DNA of 64,000 nucleotides, from the NCBI RefSeq assembly GCF_058153355.1, contig NZ_CM177019.1. The stretch is one strand, 5' to 3'. Positions within the stretch are counted from its first letter, which is position 1, and each line of letters starts with the position of its first letter. The notes below the pieces were generated by a model. It saw only the letters and a program-made list of their open reading frames with translations, was not told the DNA's origin and ran no database searches. Positions 45,379 through 53,689 of this stretch are shown piece by piece. The position numbers and the translations under genes are program-made.

Positions 45379-46632
45379 ATGTCGGGATCCAACACAGCAA
45401 TCAGCCGTCGTCGTTTACTGCAAGGCGCGGGTGCCATGTGGCTATTGAGCGTAAGTCAGGTCAGTCTGGCTGCGGTCAGCCAGGTCGTGGCGGTGCGCGT
45501 CTGGCCTGCGTCCAGCTACACCCGTGTGACGGTAGAATCTAATCGTCAGCTGAAATATAAGCAGTTCGCGTTGAGTAACCCTGAACGCGTGGTGGTGGAT
45601 ATCGAAGATGTAAACCTGAACTCAGTGCTCAAGGGGATGGCGGCACAAATTCGTGCTGATGACCCGTTCATCAAGTCGGCGCGCGTCGGGCAGTTTGACC
45701 CGCAAACCGTGCGGATGGTTTTTGAGTTAAAGCAAAACGTAAAACCGCAGCTGTTTGCCCTTGCTCCGGTCGCCGGGTTTAAAGAGCGTCTGGTGATGGA
45801 TCTCTATCCTGCCAATGCTCAGGACATGCAGGACCCGCTGCTGGCGCTGCTGGAGGATTACAATAAAGGCGATCTCGAAAAGCAGGTGCCGCCTGCGCAG
45901 AGTGGCCCGCAGCCAGGCAAAGCAGGGCGCGATCGTCCGATTGTCATTATGCTTGACCCTGGCCATGGCGGCGAAGACTCCGGTGCGGTGGGGAAATACA
46001 AAACGCGTGAAAAAGACGTGGTATTGCAAATTGCCCGCCGTTTGCGCTCTCTGATTGAGAAAGAGGGCAATATGAAAGTTTACATGACCCGTAATGAAGA
46101 CATCTTCATTCCGTTGCAAGTGCGCGTAGCAAAAGCACAGAAACAGCGTGCTGACTTGTTTGTCTCTATTCATGCCGATGCCTTTACCAGTCGCCAGCCG
46201 AGCGGTTCCTCTGTGTTTGCGCTCTCTACCAAAGGTGCAACCAGTACCGCGGCAAAATATCTGGCGCAAACTCAGAACGCCTCGGACTTGATTGGTGGCG
46301 TGAGTAAGAGCGGCGACCGTTATGTCGACCATACTATGTTCGATATGGTGCAGTCGCTGACCATTGCCGACAGTCTGAAGTTTGGTAAAGCTGTGTTGAA
46401 TAAGCTCGGTAAAATCAACAAGCTGCATAAAAATCAGGTTGAACAAGCCGGGTTTGCCGTGCTGAAAGCGCCTGATATACCCTCCATTTTGGTCGAAACG
46501 GCGTTTATCAGTAACGTTGAGGAAGAACGTAAACTGAAAACGGCAACCTTCCAGCAGGAAGTTGCGGAATCAATCCTCGCAGGGATAAAAGCGTATTTTG
46601 CCGATGGGGCGACGCTGGCGAGAAGGGGATAA
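45379..46632 (+). CDS. amiC: N-acetylmuramoyl-L-alanine amidase AmiC (Tat signal)
   Basis: [23 protein letters not shown]… twin-arginine signal; amidase_3 domain. Confidence 0.92.
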
Positions 46633-46804
46633 TGTTTTTATTTATTCAATGAATTTATATTTCGTTGAATAGATAATATTTACCTGAATATTAGACGTTG
46701 GTTTTGTGACTGATGTCGAATATTTGAATGTCGGCTTGAAAAATAAGCCGACCATCTCTTTAATTAAGCACAATTCCGTGTAATGTATATGCATTAGTTA
46801 ATCA

Positions 46805-46879
46805 TCTTGTAACTGTTAAATCAGGCAAGGCAATGTTTGAAGTAATTATTACTTCTGACGTGCCTTGCCTTTTTTTTTG
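46805..46879 (+). promoter_or_regulatory. Putative RAT (ribonucleic antiterminator)-like element overlapping an intrinsic terminator, leader of the accessory PTS operon
   Basis: TCTTGTAACTGTTAAATCAGGCAAGGC resembles BglG/LicT RAT consensus (GGATTGTTACTG…GCAGGCAAAACC); overlapping hairpin AGGCAAGGCA…TGCCTTGCCT followed by T9. Confidence 0.55.
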
Positions 46880-46889
46880 GAGCTATGGA

Positions 46890-47714
46890 ATGATCATCGA
46901 AAAAGTCATGAACAATAATTGTGTACAGGCATCGATGAATGGACAGGAGGTTATCATTTCTGGGCCTGGCGTCGGTTACAACAAAAAATATGGAATGTCG
47001 GTCCCTGAGCATCCGGCTAACCGGATTTTTTATGTCAGAAATGAACAAAAAAATAAACTCTACAAATTGATTGAACATGTGGATATTGAGTATGTTTTTG
47101 TTGCCGAAAAAATAGTGCAATATGCGGAGAACAATCTCGAAAAAAATCTCAATCCATCGCTACTATTGATTCTTGCTGATCATATTTCGAATGCAATATC
47201 CCGAGTCGCTTCAGGCATACAAATTAATAATGTTTTCCTTGATGAAATCAAAGCGTTGTACAAAGCAGAGTATGCGATAAGTCGCGATGCATTAACTATC
47301 ATTAATGAGCAATTCAGCGTTCAACTTCCTGATGATGAGATTGGTTTTATAGCATTGCATATTTTAAATAATTATGAAAATTCAGTTGATTATGAATCAG
47401 TACGGATTATTGAGTTGTCGCAAATAATCACGGGGCTTATTGAAGTTGTTTATAACAGAAAGGTGGACAGAAGTTCATTTAATTATTCCAGGTTCATGAT
47501 ACACCTTAAATATTTTTCAAGTCGCGTATTATGCAATGAAAAAATAAAACAGAAAGATATTGGTGATCTCTATGAACAGTTTCTTGAGAAAGACATTCTG
47601 TTACAGCGCGCAATTCATGAAATTGAAAGGTATTTGTACGCCACTTTTAAATATGAATTGATTTTGGAAGAAAAACTATATCTCTCTATTCGCACCAAAG
47701 TATTAATGGACTAA
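46890..47714 (+). CDS. BglG/LicT-family transcription antiterminator (CAT RNA-binding domain + PRD domains)
   Basis: ORF 46833..47714; start placed at ATG 46890 with GGAG 8 nt upstream; N-terminal CAT-like region (MIIEKVMNNNCVQASMNGQEVIISGPGVGY…) and PRD-like segments; AT-rich. Confidence 0.75.
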   Translation: MIIEKVMNNNCVQASMNGQEVIISGPGVGYNKKYGMSVPEHPANRIFYVRNEQKNKLYKLIEHVDIEYVFVAEKIVQYAENNLEKNLNPSLLLILADHISNAISRVASGIQINNVFLDEIKALYKAEYAISRDALTIINEQFSVQLPDDEIGFIALHILNNYENSVDYESVRIIELSQIITGLIEVVYNRKVDRSSFNYSRFMIHLKYFSSRVLCNEKIKQKDIGDLYEQFLEKDILLQRAIHEIERYLYATFKYELILEEKLYLSIRTKVLMD

Positions 47715-47745
47715 TTATATATAACATTTATATGAGATAACCCGC

Positions 47746-49326
47746 ATGAAACAAAAGAAAGCCTGGAGTTTTTTTCAGAGCCTGGGAAAGGCATTTATGT
47801 ATCCCATCGCTCTGCTAAGTGTATGTGGCATGATGTTAGGGCTAGGAAGTGGTTTAGCCAGCGATGATATGGCAAAATTAATTCCACTACTGGCTATTCC
47901 CGTAATTAAAACCATTCTTGATTTTATTGTTAGCCTTGGTTTGTTTGCCTTTGTCAATTTACCTGTATTGTTTGCGATAGCTATACCTCTGGGGTTATTA
48001 AAAGAGAAAGAGGATAAAGCCTATGGCGCTTTTTCTGGCTTAATTGGTTTCATGGCGATGCATCTGGGAACGAACTTTTATCTTAAACAACATGACTTAT
48101 TGGTCGCTGCTGATCAAATGTCGACACATGGGCAAACCATTATTCTGGGAATCCAGTCCTACAATACCAGTGTGTTGGGTGGGATTATAGCAGGATTATT
48201 AGTCGCCAGTATGTATAAAAAGATCGTTAACTTACGTATTCCTGAATCATTAGGATTTTATAGTGGCCCACGCCTGGTGCCTATTATTACACTGATTGTG
48301 ATGAGCGGATTTGGTCTGATCATCCCTTTTATCTGGCCGCCATTTTTCAATCTTTTCATGCTCATTGGCCACTGGATTTCAACTTCCGGTCCTGTTGGCT
48401 ATTTTTTCTATGCAGTCGCCGAACGCGTGACGATACCTTTTGGTTTAAATCACCTGGTGACGTCAGTTTTCCGCTTTACCCCCATCGGCGGATCGGCAGT
48501 GATCGGCGGAGAAGAGTATTATGGCACCCTGAACATGTTTATGGCGTACGTCAAAGAGAATGCGGTCATTCCGCTGGATTTGGCGGGGAAAATGGAACAG
48601 GGCAAACTGATGATTCAGTATGGTCTGGCTGGTGCCGCGCTGGCGATGTATCGCACTGCTCATGCTCAAAACAGAAAAGCTATCAAAGCATTGCTTATTT
48701 CCGGGGTGCTTACAGTCATTATTGGCGGCGTCAGCGAACCGATTGAGTTTCTGTTCTTATTTGTCAGTCCACTGCTATTTGTCTTCCATGCTTTTATGAA
48801 TGGATTCGCCAACATGGTCTTGCCATATATGGGCGTGAAGATGGGATTTACTGGCGATCTGATTCAATTTATTAGCTTTGGCGTATTGCGTGGCACAAGA
48901 ACAGGTTGGCCAATAGCGGTGTGTGTCGAAGTGGCCTATTTCTTTATTTATTACTTTGTGTTCCGTTGGACTATTCTCAAATTTAACCTGATGACGGTAG
49001 GCCGTGAAGAGTCCAGTCCTGTCACGCTGAACGCTCATGAGGATACGGCTATAGCGGATATCCCAACGCTTGATAAATCAGAGCTGCAAGCAGCGGAGCA
49101 GATGGTTAAGGCACTTGGTGGTAAAGAGAATATTAAATCCCTGGATAATTGCGTAACTCGTTTACGTTTAACAATCGCAGATATGGGATTGATTGACGAG
49201 GCAGCAATAAAAAGAGCTGGCGGAATTGCGGTTGTTAAACTTGATCAAAATACCCTACAAGTCATTATCGGTACTAAAGTCATCGCCTTGCGTCGGGATA
49301 TGGATAACTACATGGGGATATGCTGA
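47746..49326 (+). CDS. PTS EIICB component, glucose/maltose (MalX-like) family
   Basis: 526-aa ORF, multi-TM EIIC followed by a C-terminal EIIB domain with phosphorylatable Cys motif (NCVTRLRL). Confidence 0.85.
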   Translation: MKQKKAWSFFQSLGKAFMYPIALLSVCGMMLGLGSGLASDDMAKLIPLLAIPVIKTILDFIVSLGLFAFVNLPVLFAIAIPLGLLKEKEDKAYGAFSGLIGFMAMHLGTNFYLKQHDLLVAADQMSTHGQTIILGIQSYNTSVLGGIIAGLLVASMYKKIVNLRIPESLGFYSGPRLVPIITLIVMSGFGLIIPFIWPPFFNLFMLIGHWISTSGPVGYFFYAVAERVTIPFGLNHLVTSVFRFTPIGGSAVIGGEEYYGTLNMFMAYVKENAVIPLDLAGKMEQGKLMIQYGLAGAALAMYRTAHAQNRKAIKALLISGVLTVIIGGVSEPIEFLFLFVSPLLFVFHAFMNGFANMVLPYMGVKMGFTGDLIQFISFGVLRGTRTGWPIAVCVEVAYFFIYYFVFRWTILKFNLMTVGREESSPVTLNAHEDTAIADIPTLDKSELQAAEQMVKALGGKENIKSLDNCVTRLRLTIADMGLIDEAAIKRAGGIAVVKLDQNTLQVIIGTKVIALRRDMDNYMGIC

Positions 49327-50501
49327 TGGATGTTTTTAATACTCCTATTTCCCGCAAAGGAACATATTGTACCCAATGGGACTTTTGCGAGGACAGATTT
49401 GGTGTAAAAGATGTATTACCATTCTCTATTTCAGATATGGATCTTCCGATACCGGAAGCTATCATCAGGGCATTAAGAAAACGTCTGGAACACCCGATTT
49501 TAGGGTACAGCCGTTGGCAGCATGATGACTATCTGAATGCGATAGTCAATTGGTATCATCAACAATATAAAACTGAAATCAAACCAGAATGGATCACCTA
49601 TAGCCCAAGCGTGATGTACTCCATTGCTAAAGCAATAGAGTTATTGACATCGCATGGTGATAATATTCTCGTTTTTACACCTGTCTATAATGCATTTTTT
49701 GATATAATTAAACATAGCGAGAGAAATATTCTGACAGCCTCTTTGATTATAAAAAATGAGGGGGGCTACGCTATCAATTGGCAAGATTTTGATCTTAAGA
49801 TTCAAAGCGCAAAGATGGTGTTATTATGTAATCCTCATAACCCGACAGGAACCGTCTGGTCGGAAGAAGAGCTGCATAAAATCGCTGCAAGCTGTGCAAG
49901 ACATAATGTCTGGTTATGTTCAGATGAAATTCACAGTGATTTTGTTTTTAATCGTAGCTTTACATCTGCGCTTAAAATAAAAAAAGAAAAAGTAGTGGTG
50001 TTTAATTCGATATCGAAGACATTTAATGTTCCTGCGCTAACAGGATCGTATATGATTTCAACTGACGATAATTTTAATCATAAGTTCAGAACGATATCAA
50101 GATATCGCGATTTTGTAAACTCCCCATCCGTACTGAATATAATTGCAACTATTATTGCCTATAACGAATGTGAGGGATGGTTAACGTCATTAAAGGCACA
50201 TATTGCCTCTAACATTCAATTCACCCAGCAGTATCTGAACGAAAATACTCCAGAATTGATCGTAAGGCCAGCTGATGGTTGCTATTTTTCGTGGATAGAT
50301 TGCTCTGCTATTGGTTATCCCTTTGATGAATTCTACAGTCGATTAATTCATGAAGGCAAAGTGGGCATTATGGCGGGGAATGTCTATGGAACGGAGGGGG
50401 AGGGCTACCTTCGTCTGAACCTGGCCTGCGGTCGAGAAAAATTATATATGGGGCTTACGCGTCTTGCGAGTGTAATTAAAAATATTAATCAAGGAAAATA
50501 A
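49320..50501 (+). CDS. PLP-dependent C-S lyase / aminotransferase, MalY/PatB-like paralog
   Basis: Conserved blocks shared with MalY: TYCTQWDF, LPFSISDMD, GYSRW, CNPHNPTG, SDEIH, NSISKTFNVPALTG (PLP lysine). Confidence 0.8.
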   Translation: MLMDVFNTPISRKGTYCTQWDFCEDRFGVKDVLPFSISDMDLPIPEAIIRALRKRLEHPILGYSRWQHDDYLNAIVNWYHQQYKTEIKPEWITYSPSVMYSIAKAIELLTSHGDNILVFTPVYNAFFDIIKHSERNILTASLIIKNEGGYAINWQDFDLKIQSAKMVLLCNPHNPTGTVWSEEELHKIAASCARHNVWLCSDEIHSDFVFNRSFTSALKIKKEKVVVFNSISKTFNVPALTGSYMISTDDNFNHKFRTISRYRDFVNSPSVLNIIATIIAYNECEGWLTSLKAHIASNIQFTQQYLNENTPELIVRPADGCYFSWIDCSAIGYPFDEFYSRLIHEGKVGIMAGNVYGTEGEGYLRLNLACGREKLYMGLTRLASVIKNINQGK

Positions 50502-50503
50502 AA

Positions 50504-51100
50504 ATGAACAGCACGGATCTTATCCATCTCATTAAACATTTTATGCGTAACGAACATAAAGCAGTTGAAGAAGTTATTGATTCTCCCCTTTCGGAGGTCG
50601 CAAATTTAATTAAAGTATTACAGTCTTGTCAGGGGAAAGTTGTTTTTATTGGTGTCGGTAAGTCCGGTATTATTGCCCGAAAACTCGCCGCAACATTTGC
50701 CAGCACTGGAACTCCCTCGTTTTTTGTTCACGGTACTGAAGCCGTACACGGCGATCTTGGGATGGTGGCGAAAGATGATGTTGTTATTCTTATTTCAAAC
50801 AGTGGTGAGACGACAGAAATCCTGGCAACACTACCTAGTCTGAAAAAAATGGGTAATTATTTGATCTCCTTTACCCGCAGTCATCGCTCATCGCTTGCGA
50901 TAAGTTGTGATTTATCCGTTGAAATTCCCGTAAAAAGTGAGGCGGATAATTTAGGTTTAGCGCCGTCATGCTCATCAACAGTCGTTCTGGTTGTTGGTGA
51001 TGCGGTGGCGCTTGCGCTCTCCGAATTGAAAAAGTTTACTCGTGCTGATTTCGGCTTATATCATCCAGGAGGTGCGCTCGGTATTAAAGCAAACTCATAA
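50504..51100 (+). CDS. SIS-domain sugar-phosphate isomerase-like protein (KdsD/GutQ-like SIS domain, no CBS domains)
   Basis: VVFIGVGKSGIIARKLAATFASTGTPSFFVHGTEAVHGDLGMV closely resembles the KdsD/GutQ SIS core; only 198 aa. Confidence 0.75.
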   Translation: MNSTDLIHLIKHFMRNEHKAVEEVIDSPLSEVANLIKVLQSCQGKVVFIGVGKSGIIARKLAATFASTGTPSFFVHGTEAVHGDLGMVAKDDVVILISNSGETTEILATLPSLKKMGNYLISFTRSHRSSLAISCDLSVEIPVKSEADNLGLAPSCSSTVVLVVGDAVALALSELKKFTRADFGLYHPGGALGIKANS

Positions 51101-51161
51101 TTTTAGAATATAAAACAGTAACCGGTCACGCCATCTTTTGGGGTGGCGTTCATTGATGTGA

Positions 51162-52118
51162 GTGTCAGCTATGAAAAACGTTCTGGTCACCGTTCCCAGC
51201 TTTTCAGCGCGTTGTGTTTCTGCCAGCAAGCTGCTAAGAGAAAATCATTTTAACCTTATTATCAAGAATAATGTGGAGCATCTGGTTAAATCAGAATCCA
51301 CAGTATTACGAGAATCTATTTGCGCAGTCATTGCCGGAAAAGATTGTTATCAAGCGGATACGTTATCGCGACTACCAGGAGTGAAAATAATATCGAGATT
51401 CGGGACAGGGATTGATAATATTGATCTTCATACGGCTCGACAATCAGGTATTGTGGTCAATAATGCTGTTGGGATTAATTCAAATGCAGTCGCGGAATTT
51501 ATCATTGGTCTTATTTTTGCGAGCATGAGAAATATCCCCGGTAGCTATCATGCAATGCAAAATGGTTATTGGGGCGAGTCGCATGGCTGCGAGTTACAAG
51601 GTAAACGTATTGGCCTGCTTGGCTATGGCAATATTGGCAAAACACTGGCGAAAAGGTTATCTGGTTTTGATGTTGAGCTTTTAGCTTTTGACAAACAACC
51701 CGATTTCCAGGCCGCAGGCAAAGATGGAGTTCAGTTCGTATCAATTGAAGATATCTTTATGCAGTCTCATGTCATCATCGTTCTTTTGCCATTTTCTCCG
51801 GAGCTGGAGAACTTCATTAGTCATAAATATTTGTCGATGATGCGCAATGGTGCTCTTATCATCAACGCCGCAAGGGGAAAGTTGCTGGATGAGGGTGCTT
51901 TACTTCAGGTAATTGAAGAACGAAATGTTTTTGCAGCACTGGATGTGTTTAGCTCTGAACCGCTAGCGCAATTTAGCCCATTGCTACATGCCAGGAATAT
52001 CATTACAACGCCGCATATTGCGGCCGCCACCGTTGAGTCATACCAGCAAACCGGGATATACGTTGCCAGGTCGATAATAGATTTCTTTGCAGGAAGGGAG
52101 ATAAAAAACGTGCTGTGA
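51162..52118 (+). CDS. D-isomer-specific 2-hydroxyacid dehydrogenase family protein (NAD-binding)
   Basis: 318-aa ORF with GLLGYGNIGKTLAKRL Rossmann motif, family catalytic His/Arg context. Confidence 0.8.
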   Translation: MSAMKNVLVTVPSFSARCVSASKLLRENHFNLIIKNNVEHLVKSESTVLRESICAVIAGKDCYQADTLSRLPGVKIISRFGTGIDNIDLHTARQSGIVVNNAVGINSNAVAEFIIGLIFASMRNIPGSYHAMQNGYWGESHGCELQGKRIGLLGYGNIGKTLAKRLSGFDVELLAFDKQPDFQAAGKDGVQFVSIEDIFMQSHVIIVLLPFSPELENFISHKYLSMMRNGALIINAARGKLLDEGALLQVIEERNVFAALDVFSSEPLAQFSPLLHARNIITTPHIAAATVESYQQTGIYVARSIIDFFAGREIKNVL

Positions 52119-52147
52119 GGTCAGCTAAGGAAGATTTCAGGTACAAA

Positions 52148-52182
52148 AAAACCGCAATCTGTGAAACACATTGCGGTTTATC
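52148..52182 (+). terminator. Putative terminator hairpin downstream of the accessory operon
   Basis: AACCGCAAT-…-ATTGCGGTT inverted repeat after the dehydrogenase stop; weak T-tract. Confidence 0.45.
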
Positions 52183-52196
52183 AGCATCATAAGTGT

Positions 52197-52273
<77 letters not shown>

Positions 52274-52306
52274 TCACCGTACTGCTTTACTTCATCAAAT
52301 TTTGAT

Positions 52307-52383
<77 letters not shown>

Positions 52384-52591
52384 TCCGTGGATGCGCACTA
52401 TACTCCGCTCGCGTTTTCATGCAACCTTTTTTTTACCCGGATCACGGATTTGGCATGATTTTGAGCAAAAACAAATCACTAAAGCCTGTTTTTTGTGCAA
52501 AATTTGCGTCAGGGAGAGGCTGCTCATTTCATTAAACGCGGCGGTTTGTTATCTTCATTGCGCCTTATTTTTTAAACTGAAGAAGAGAACA

Positions 52592-53689
52592 ATGAAAGGA
52601 CGTTGGGTAAAGTACCTTCTTATGGGCACGGTTGTGGCAATGCTTGCCGCCTGCTCTTCCAAACCAACCGATCGCGGACAGCAATATAAAGACGGGAAAT
52701 TTACCCAGCCTTTCTCTCTGGTAAACCAGCCAGATGCCGTTGGCGCGCCAATTAACGCCGGTGATTTTGCCGAGCAAATTAACCATATCCGTACTTCGTC
52801 ACCGCGTCTGTATGGCAACCAGAGTAATGTTTATAATGCGGTGCAGGAGTGGCTACGCGCAGGCGGTGATACCCGCAATATGCGTCAGTTCGGCATTGAC
52901 GCCTGGCAGATGGAAGGTGCCGACAACTATGGCAACGTGCAGTTTACGGGCTATTACACGCCTGTCATTCAGGCGCGCCATACCCGTCAGGGCGAGTTCC
53001 AGTATCCTATTTACCGTATGCCGCCAAAACGTGGTCGTCTGCCGTCTCGTGCGGAGATCTACGCGGGAGCATTGAGCGATAAATACATCCTCGCTTACAG
53101 CAACTCTCTGATGGATAACTTCATTATGGATGTGCAGGGTAGCGGGTATATCGATTTTGGTGATGGCAGTCCGCTTAACTTCTTCAGCTATGCCGGAAAG
53201 AATGGTCATGCCTATCGCAGTATTGGTAAGGTGCTGATTGACCGTGGCGAAGTGAAAAAAGAAGATATGTCGATGCAGGCGATTCGTCACTGGGGTGAAA
53301 CACACAGTGAAGCCGAGGTTCGCGAGCTGCTGGAACAGAACCCGTCTTTCGTCTTCTTTAAACCGCAATCTTTTGCTCCGGTGAAAGGGGCAAGTGCGGT
53401 GCCGCTGGTTGGTCGCGCTTCAGTTGCGTCCGATCGTTCCATTATCCCGCCTGGTACAACCTTACTGGCAGAAGTGCCGCTGCTGGATAATAACGGCAAA
53501 TTTAACGGTCAGTACGAACTGCGGCTGATGGTGGCGCTGGATGTCGGTGGTGCAATCAAAGGCCAACACTTCGATATTTATCAAGGTATCGGGCCGGAAG
53601 CCGGACACCGCGCAGGTTGGTACAACCACTATGGACGTGTTTGGGTGCTGAAAACCGCCCCGGGCGCAGGTAACGTCTTTAGCGGCTGA
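52592..53689 (+). CDS. mltA: Membrane-bound lytic murein transglycosylase A (lipoprotein)
   Basis: MKGRWVKYLLMGTVVAMLAACSS lipobox; 365 aa; the ORF-track N-terminal extension overlapping the tRNA is discounted. Confidence 0.92.
   Translation: MKGRWVKYLLMGTVVAMLAACSSKPTDRGQQYKDGKFTQPFSLVNQPDAVGAPINAGDFAEQINHIRTSSPRLYGNQSNVYNAVQEWLRAGGDTRNMRQFGIDAWQMEGADNYGNVQFTGYYTPVIQARHTRQGEFQYPIYRMPPKRGRLPSRAEIYAGALSDKYILAYSNSLMDNFIMDVQGSGYIDFGDGSPLNFFSYAGKNGHAYRSIGKVLIDRGEVKKEDMSMQAIRHWGETHSEAEVRELLEQNPSFVFFKPQSFAPVKGASAVPLVGRASVASDRSIIPPGTTLLAEVPLLDNNGKFNGQYELRLMVALDVGGAIKGQHFDIYQGIGPEAGHRAGWYNHYGRVWVLKTAPGAGNVFSG

Follow-up and report, generated by a model that had tools for sequence, protein, structure and literature searches.

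A candidate RAT–terminator antitermination switch in the leader of the pafR–pafP operon of Escherichia coli

The window, the whole 64-kb stretch of DNA analysed here, is a segment of the E. coli chromosome in which recD, argA and amiC are followed by a five-gene accessory operon and two tRNA-fMet genes; the gene beyond the tRNA genes, recognised from its first residues, is taken here to be that of MltA. All five operon genes are on the plus strand. The first, pafR (46890–47714), encodes an antiterminator of 274 amino acids composed of a CAT domain (residues 1–55), a PRD1 domain (residues 73–160) and a divergent PRD2 domain (residues 184–250), and its RefSeq start agrees with the ATG at 46890. 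It is separated by a 31-nt spacer from the cognate PTS permease gene of the operon, pafP (47746–49326), which encodes a MalX-like EIICB of 526 amino acids from the glucose/maltose family, lacking an EIIA (TIGR02004, 5.7e-161, below the cut-off); its product is presumed to be the sensor that controls the antiterminator. The third gene (49320–50501) encodes a MalY/PatB-family PLP-dependent C–S lyase (TIGR04350, 4.3e-110, above the cut-off), for which the RefSeq start in homologues corresponds to window position 49326. It is followed by a gene for a short KpsF/GutQ-like sugar-phosphate isomerase comprising the SIS domain only (50504–51100; assigned by profile match and annotation), which is presumably c3406, arabinose-5-phosphate isomerase. 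The last operon gene (51162–52118) encodes an enzyme of the D-2-hydroxyacid/phosphoglycerate dehydrogenase family. A terminator scan of the operon interior returned only three weak terminator-like matches, fewer than in shuffled sequence, and there is no convincing second terminator between pafR and pafP.

The G+C content of the operon is 33–45%, compared with 50–55% in the flanking core genes (window 46800–52000), so the operon is probably foreign. It was probably acquired horizontally and may be silenced by H-NS. Outside the enterobacteria, the antiterminator has its closest relatives in the Clostridia, at approximately 35% identity. The same leader and genes are present beside amiC in UTI89 and CFT073, where they are followed by a T6SS cluster; the leader does not differ between these two strains. 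We identify the operon as the pafR/pafP locus, c3405–c3410 of the CFT073 metV island. These genes are annotated as ‘PTS system, maltose/glucose specific’ within PAI-CFT073-metV (PMC2831201). The T6SS cluster that adjoins the far end of the operon in UTI89 and CFT073 is missing from the window strain, and the paf operon and the T6SS cluster are thus separable modules of the ‘metV island’.

The initial annotation had called the first gene of the operon an antiterminator, and profile and structure comparisons bear this out. The pafR product matches the Pfam families CAT_RBD (2.7e-14) and PRD, the latter strongly over PRD1 (1.6e-23) and weakly over PRD2 (i-E of 0.085), and matches the structures of LicT and GlcT at approximately 1e-28 to 1e-32. 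Its whole-protein NCBIfam scores are below the cut-offs of the LicT and GlcT models (NF046042 / NF047357; 227.7 against 300 for LicT, 178.6 against 320 for GlcT) and of the BglG model (104.5 against 322), and it is below the curated LacT cut-off as well. It is 30% identical to E. coli BglG and belongs to a subfamily separate from LicT/GlcT. Three of the four conserved phosphorylatable PRD histidines are present, with His98, His157 and His205 corresponding to LicT His100, His159 and His207. The fourth, LicT His269, is replaced by an arginine (codon 268, 47691–47693) in all of the enterobacterial members, whereas the Firmicute homologues have a histidine at this position. It is a matter of speculation whether the divergent PRD2 with its arginine confers a weaker dependence on HPr.

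The leader lies in the 257-nt spacer between the end of amiC (46632) and the ATG of pafR, and the leader elements described below are on the plus strand. A strict sigma-70 scan of the leader found no consensus promoter, the −35 region being weak and A+T-rich. A candidate −10 hexamer, TAATGT (46781–46786), conforms to a TAnnGT pattern that is invariant in nine leaders from at least four species, as is a CAT downstream of it. Transcription probably starts near the conserved CA at 46792–46793. At the other end of the leader, a Shine–Dalgarno sequence, GGAG (46879–46882), is positioned 7 nt ahead of the start codon and is invariant in the nine-leader alignment. An in-frame ATG at 46833 was considered as the start of a leader peptide acting by attenuation and was rejected: it is ACG or AGG in most of the non-Escherichia leaders, and its Shine–Dalgarno spacing is poor.

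The region between amiC and the leader contains further elements. A hairpin with a perfect 8-bp stem, GTCGGCTT-GAAAAAT-AAGCCGAC (46730–46752), is present in the E. coli leaders examined (weaker in CFSAN027350), whereas neither the A. hermannii leader nor the Citrobacter-like one has it. Such a hairpin may serve as the terminator of amiC or be the scar of an insertion. The sequence TGTGACTGATGTCGAA at 46705–46720 resembles a CRP site, with a left half-site (TGTGA) that is perfect and a right half that matches poorly. The half-site is conserved in all lineages examined, approximately 80 nt upstream of the putative start, and might reflect a dependence on cAMP–CRP, as in bgl. In E. coli ES7, the IS5-like element ISEc68 (ES7 locus 1872–2852) is inserted at TTAG, equivalent to window 46794–46797, between the candidate promoter and the RAT and 9 nt upstream of the RAT core. 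ES7 is the only strain among approximately 1690 genomes with a disrupted upstream region. The insertion recalls the activation by IS elements of the cryptic bgl operon, and could equally inactivate the paf operon.

A resemblance to the RAT consensus immediately upstream of the antiterminator gene had been noted in the initial annotation, and extends to an exact match of the core. The RAT-like string TCTTGTAACTGTTAAATCAGGCAAGGC occupies 46805–46831, and within it the conserved core, CUUGUAACUGUUAAAUCAGGCAAG (equivalently CTTGTAACTGTTAAATCAGGCAAG), spans 46806–46829. Its architecture comprises a middle stem (46806–46809 with 46826–46829), an asymmetric internal loop (46810–46812 facing 46825), a top stem (46813–46815 with 46822–46824) and an apical loop (46816–46821). 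The comparator RATs were taken from sequence, and include K-12 bgl t1 (GGATTGTTACTGCATTCGCAGGCAAAACC), bgl t2 and C. tertium sites such as GGATTGTAACTGATTCGATCAGGCAAAACC, which were located around a licT homologue found by protein similarity; the paf site matches these canonical RATs. The 64-kb window contains a single instance of the core pattern CTTGTNACTGN6CAGGCAAG, free of mismatches. When up to three mismatches are allowed, 0.17 chance matches are expected, and 16 of 100 shuffled sequences gave at least one.

A covariance model trained on only five RATs (two from E. coli bgl, t1 and t2, and three from C. tertium), none of which was selected with the core pattern, was run unfiltered on both strands of the window. 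Its top match was 46807–46828 (15.7 bits, rough E of approximately 0.013), and the other matches, at 12.8 bits or less, are on the wrong strand or inside genes. Neither the pattern scan nor the covariance-model scan found a second RAT in the pafR–pafP spacer or elsewhere in the window. An Rfam scan of 46000–53000 at E ≤ 10 returned no family at the leader, and only tRNAs and two weak chance matches elsewhere.

The RAT hairpin is the minimum free energy structure of the nascent RNA (to 46845), at −6.3 to −6.9 kcal/mol, and the RNAalifold consensus likewise contains the top stem, the upper asymmetric loop and the middle stem. All seven stem pairs are standard in eight sequences and none of them varies, so that the fold receives no support from covariation. 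The basal GG/CC stem and the lower internal loop (positions 1–3 and 26–29 of the 29-nt RAT) are not present, and the covariance model aligns to the site over model positions 4–26 only. The 5′ flank (AUCAU, AUUAU, GUAAU or UUUAA across leaders) is unconserved and has no consistent pairing partner. In RATs of B. subtilis, the basal GG/CC stem and, chiefly, the lower loop are specificity determinants, with A3 and A26 in the lower loop specifying LicT, U3 and U8 specifying SacY, and symmetrical triple base pairs present in the GlcT RAT (PMC1635312). In the paf RAT, positions 3, 26 and 27 are C, G and G/A, and C3 pairs with G26. Given the missing basal stem and lower loop and the C3–G26 pair, the paf RAT is likely to be specific for its own protein.

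Downstream of the RAT, and partly overlapping it, is an intrinsic terminator hairpin at 46823–46870 (48 nt, 21 bp, approximately −28.1 kcal/mol), longer than the hairpin described in the initial annotation. Its stem comprises three segments (46823–46832 with 46861–46870, 46834–46837 with 46857–46860, and 46839–46845 with 46849–46855) closed by a loop at 46846–46848. The basal segment is formed by the inverted repeat AGGCAAGGCA (46823–46832) and TGCCTTGCCT (46861–46870), and the apical helix is A+U-rich (GAAGUAA/UUACUUC). The nine T residues reported to follow the hairpin occupy 46870–46878, the first of them doubling as the last base of the stem, and the tract ends 11 nt before the ATG. The 101-nt region 46790–46890 folds at −30.4 kcal/mol (z = −4.36), and none of 200 shuffled sequences folds as well. 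A simple terminator scanner did not list the 46823–46870 hairpin, probably owing to its interrupted stem and A+U-rich apical helix; both folding and covariation show it clearly.

The RAT and the terminator share 7–8 nt (46822/46823–46829/46830), the 3′ half of the RAT overlapping the 5′ arm of the terminator. Folding of the leader agrees with the earlier proposal that the two are mutually exclusive. The terminator fold has a predicted energy of −28.1 to −29.6 kcal/mol, compared with −14.4 kcal/mol when the RAT is forced; in the forced structure only the upper part of the hairpin forms, while UGCCUUGCCU and the U-tract are single-stranded and no terminator abuts the U-tract. Once the 3′ arm is present the terminator dominates at equilibrium, with a probability of approximately 1.0 for the basal terminator pair and approximately 2e-4 for a RAT pair, whereas the nascent RNA folds as the RAT hairpin. 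Predictions for the leaders of Atlantibacter, Citrobacter, E. whittamii and the Clostridia show these two states as well. Since the terminator is favoured at equilibrium, the default state would be OFF, and antitermination would have to be kinetic. Kinetic antitermination is established for LicT and SacY (PMC3575810, PMC5393181).

The homologous leaders compared come from E. coli, E. whittamii, Atlantibacter, Citrobacter and a metagenomic contig that is unassigned. Within the RAT core only loop base 46811 varies between them (A or C), while the 5′ and 3′ flanks vary, a pattern that fits a protein-recognised sequence. The terminator has changed in sequence and kept its pairing: the alignment of nine leaders has 92.5% of its cells paired, and three pairs are changed on both sides. 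In the basal helix, GGCAAGGCA/UGCCUUGCC is replaced by GGCAAGACA/UGUCUUGCC (G–C to A–U), with a G–U intermediate in one leader (L012), and in the apical helix GAAG…CUUC is replaced by AAAG…CUUU (G–C to A–U). The covariation score of the terminator is reached by none of 500 shuffles, and slid registers fall to 31–56% paired. A run of eight or nine T residues is retained in all of the homologous leaders.

In E. coli, the 100-nt leader is present at one copy per genome in 1679–1688 of 5426 complete genomes (approximately 31%), at 94% identity or more, and the changes in the most divergent E. coli leader are confined to the terminator interior. No match to the leader was found among the plasmids of PLSDB. 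A. hermannii carries the same operon at the same amiC site, with four or five genes depending on the assembly. A Citrobacter-like metagenomic contig (7001–12240) has all five genes, preceded by the same leader, elsewhere on the chromosome, between a gene for an LTXXQ-domain protein and dnaQ/rnhA, indicating that the unit, including the RAT and terminator, has moved as a block. Further metagenomic contigs encode antiterminators that are 77–80% identical to the E. coli protein.

A very strong terminator at the head of a low-GC, foreign-looking operon could be constitutive only, insulating the operon against amiC read-through or silencing it, with the RAT an unused relic in E. coli. The degenerate PRD2 would be in keeping with such a relic, and Baum et al. 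are said in their abstract to have detected no expression from the paf promoter in vitro. On the other hand, the core stays invariant in at least four enterobacterial species and approximately 1680 E. coli genomes while adjacent bases drift, which argues for continuing selection. No lineage examined has a broken antiterminator ORF, and in A. hermannii amiC has a terminator of its own, farther upstream. We regard a purely constitutive terminator as improbable.

The core pattern was also used to scan 100,044 species-representative genomes, which gave 93 stretches; the analysis covers the 80 loci that were listed. Among the matches listed, five are enterobacterial (E. coli, E. whittamii, Atlantibacter hermannii and two Citrobacter species), and the leader is common to all five. 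Another 29 of those listed belong to the Clostridia, mostly Oscillospirales. All 29 have an overlapping terminator (…CAAGACCAAAC…GTTTGGTCTTTTTT), and in all 29 the core lies directly upstream of an antiterminator gene (phmmer E of 1e-35 to 1e-44), with a glucose-family PTS gene likewise downstream (best E of approximately 1e-90). Approximately 30 matches in Collinsella (pattern CTTGTGACTGAGCGCACAGGCAAG) were set aside, as they have no overlapping terminator, T-run or nearby antiterminator gene; their conserved flank is probably just conserved coding sequence. The recurrence of the core in Collinsella without either partner means that the core alone is not diagnostic. Approximately 15 scattered matches among those listed look like chance, for which the rough expectation is approximately nine.

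These comparisons bear on whether the RAT resemblance is itself a chance match beside an ordinary terminator. The motif is short, and shuffled sequence does match it at three mismatches, at the frequency given above; the paf match, by contrast, is exact, overlaps the terminator arm directly upstream of a CAT–PRD gene, is conserved between species and recurs in the same arrangement at the 29 listed Clostridia loci, which leaves coincidence with a negligible probability. It is also conceivable that the RAT is functional and is read mainly by another antiterminator, through cross-talk with BglG, or that PafR has other transcripts as its main targets. In its upper part the RAT is almost the same as the bgl RATs, and over-expression of PafR is reported in the literature to affect virulence and biofilm genes broadly. 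However, the LicT/BglG-type determinants A3 and A26 are C and G here and the basal stem is absent, the RAT accompanies pafR in every lineage and at two chromosomal sites, and the E. coli species-representative genome has a single exact core match, the paf site. We consider it very unlikely that another antiterminator is the main reader, or that other transcripts are the main target.

The leader, of approximately 97 nt, is thus interpreted with high confidence as a switch of the BglG/SacY type, in which a RAT and a terminator control a five-gene operon. Transcription would start near 46793, and the 24-nt RAT would fold as a weak hairpin (approximately −5 to −7 kcal/mol) as it leaves the polymerase. 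Approximately 31 nt later, the 3′ arm of the 21-bp terminator would emerge. Without active protein, the terminator (−28 kcal/mol, U9) would displace the RAT, and transcription would stop before pafR. An active PafR dimer would instead clamp the nascent RAT during the 31-nt interval and lock 46822–46830, blocking the basal terminator helix next to the U-tract and permitting read-through into all five genes. As in bglG and nagY, PafR would thereby activate its own synthesis, with basal read-through providing the first protein. If PafP (EIICB) behaves like BglF towards BglG and PtsG towards GlcT, it would phosphorylate PRD1 (His98 and His157) when the sugar is absent, keeping PafR inactive, and would release PafR during transport of the sugar. 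The best-supported reading, drawn by precedent from bglG and nagY, is that the whole operon is under autoregulated, substrate-dependent antitermination. The analysis shows the sequence, the competing structures, the covariation, the conservation and the gene content; the promoter, the binding of protein to RNA, the inducer and the autoregulation are the parts of the scheme that we infer.

The closest counterpart, the PafR/PafP system of CFT073, is this very locus, and both CFT073 and UTI89 carry an identical RAT and terminator in its leader. The arrangement is also that of bglGFB, in which a leader RAT and terminator precede the antiterminator gene and then the PTS gene, the regulator lies behind its own terminator, the core UUGUnACUG...CAGGCAA is held in common and the upstream region is A+T-rich. 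However, bgl has a second RAT and terminator between bglG and bglF, at the position of the 31-nt paf spacer that has none, and its RATs have a GGA...AAACC basal stem and lower loop that the paf RAT lacks. Moreover, BglF is a beta-glucoside EIIBCA, whereas the paf permease is a MalX-like EIICB. In B. subtilis GlcT/ptsG, a CAT–PRD antiterminator similarly controls a glucose-family PTS, through a RAT that deviates from the LicT and SacY sites in the lower-loop region (PMC1635312). Unlike the arrangement proposed for pafR, the RAT follows glcT and so exerts no autoregulation on that gene.

The nagY–nagE operon of E. faecalis is similar in having a RAT and terminator in the 5′ untranslated region of an antiterminator–PTS operon, and is self-regulating and linked to virulence (PMC9981650). 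It differs in that its sugar is N-acetylglucosamine and its RAT has low sequence conservation. The Oscillospirales loci (Butyricicoccus, Gemmiger, Agathobaculum, Fournierella and others) are alike in the core pattern, the overlapping terminator and the gene order, although their RATs keep a basal GG...ACC stem and their PTS proteins, at approximately 700 amino acids, are approximately 170 amino acids longer than the paf EIICB. They are without the lyase, isomerase and dehydrogenase genes, and their antiterminators are distant from PafR, as the phmmer values above indicate.

The paf leader is a well-formed and conserved case of a textbook mechanism at an already named UPEC locus, with only two unusual points, the minimal RAT and the PRD2 arginine substitution. 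For the BglG/SacY paradigm, nothing is mechanistically new except a RAT without the lower loop. The leader switch may already be described in the literature. Baum et al. (2014; Infect Immun 82:4241; PMID 25069986) are cited for pafR being a regulator of transcription, encoded in the CFT073 metV island and required for urinary-tract infection in mice, and for PafR being an antiterminator. According to a review, Gordon et al. (2015; PMID 26159075) screened the genomes of K-12 and of uropathogenic E. coli for RAT motifs. Extraintestinal pathogenic E. coli carry the paf operon in their metV island, where it has been tied to fitness in urinary-tract infection. A switch gating the whole operon, including the regulator, would explain its silence until a host-derived sugar is sensed, and would offer a handle for finding the inducer.

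The abstract of Baum et al. reportedly states that PafR can act as an antiterminator and that its genomic targets are unknown. It is possible, although we hold this only tentatively, that the leader RAT is the missing direct target of PafR and also represents a distinct ‘minimal’ class, in which a 24-nt core devoid of basal stem and lower loop is paired with a protein bearing an arginine in PRD2. Such a class, if real, would be insulated from BglG cross-talk, and would be missed by descriptor searches that require a basal stem.

At its far end, the operon directly adjoins the tRNA-fMet genes, of which the window has only two, identical and on the minus strand (52197–52273 and 52307–52383); K-12 has three fMet tRNA genes (metZWV). 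Between the last operon gene and these genes is a hairpin, ACCGCAAT…ATTGCGGT (52140–52185), flanked by A7 on the plus strand, which reads as T7 on the minus strand. The tRNA operon, on the minus strand, looks to be terminated by this hairpin, which may end the paf operon as well.
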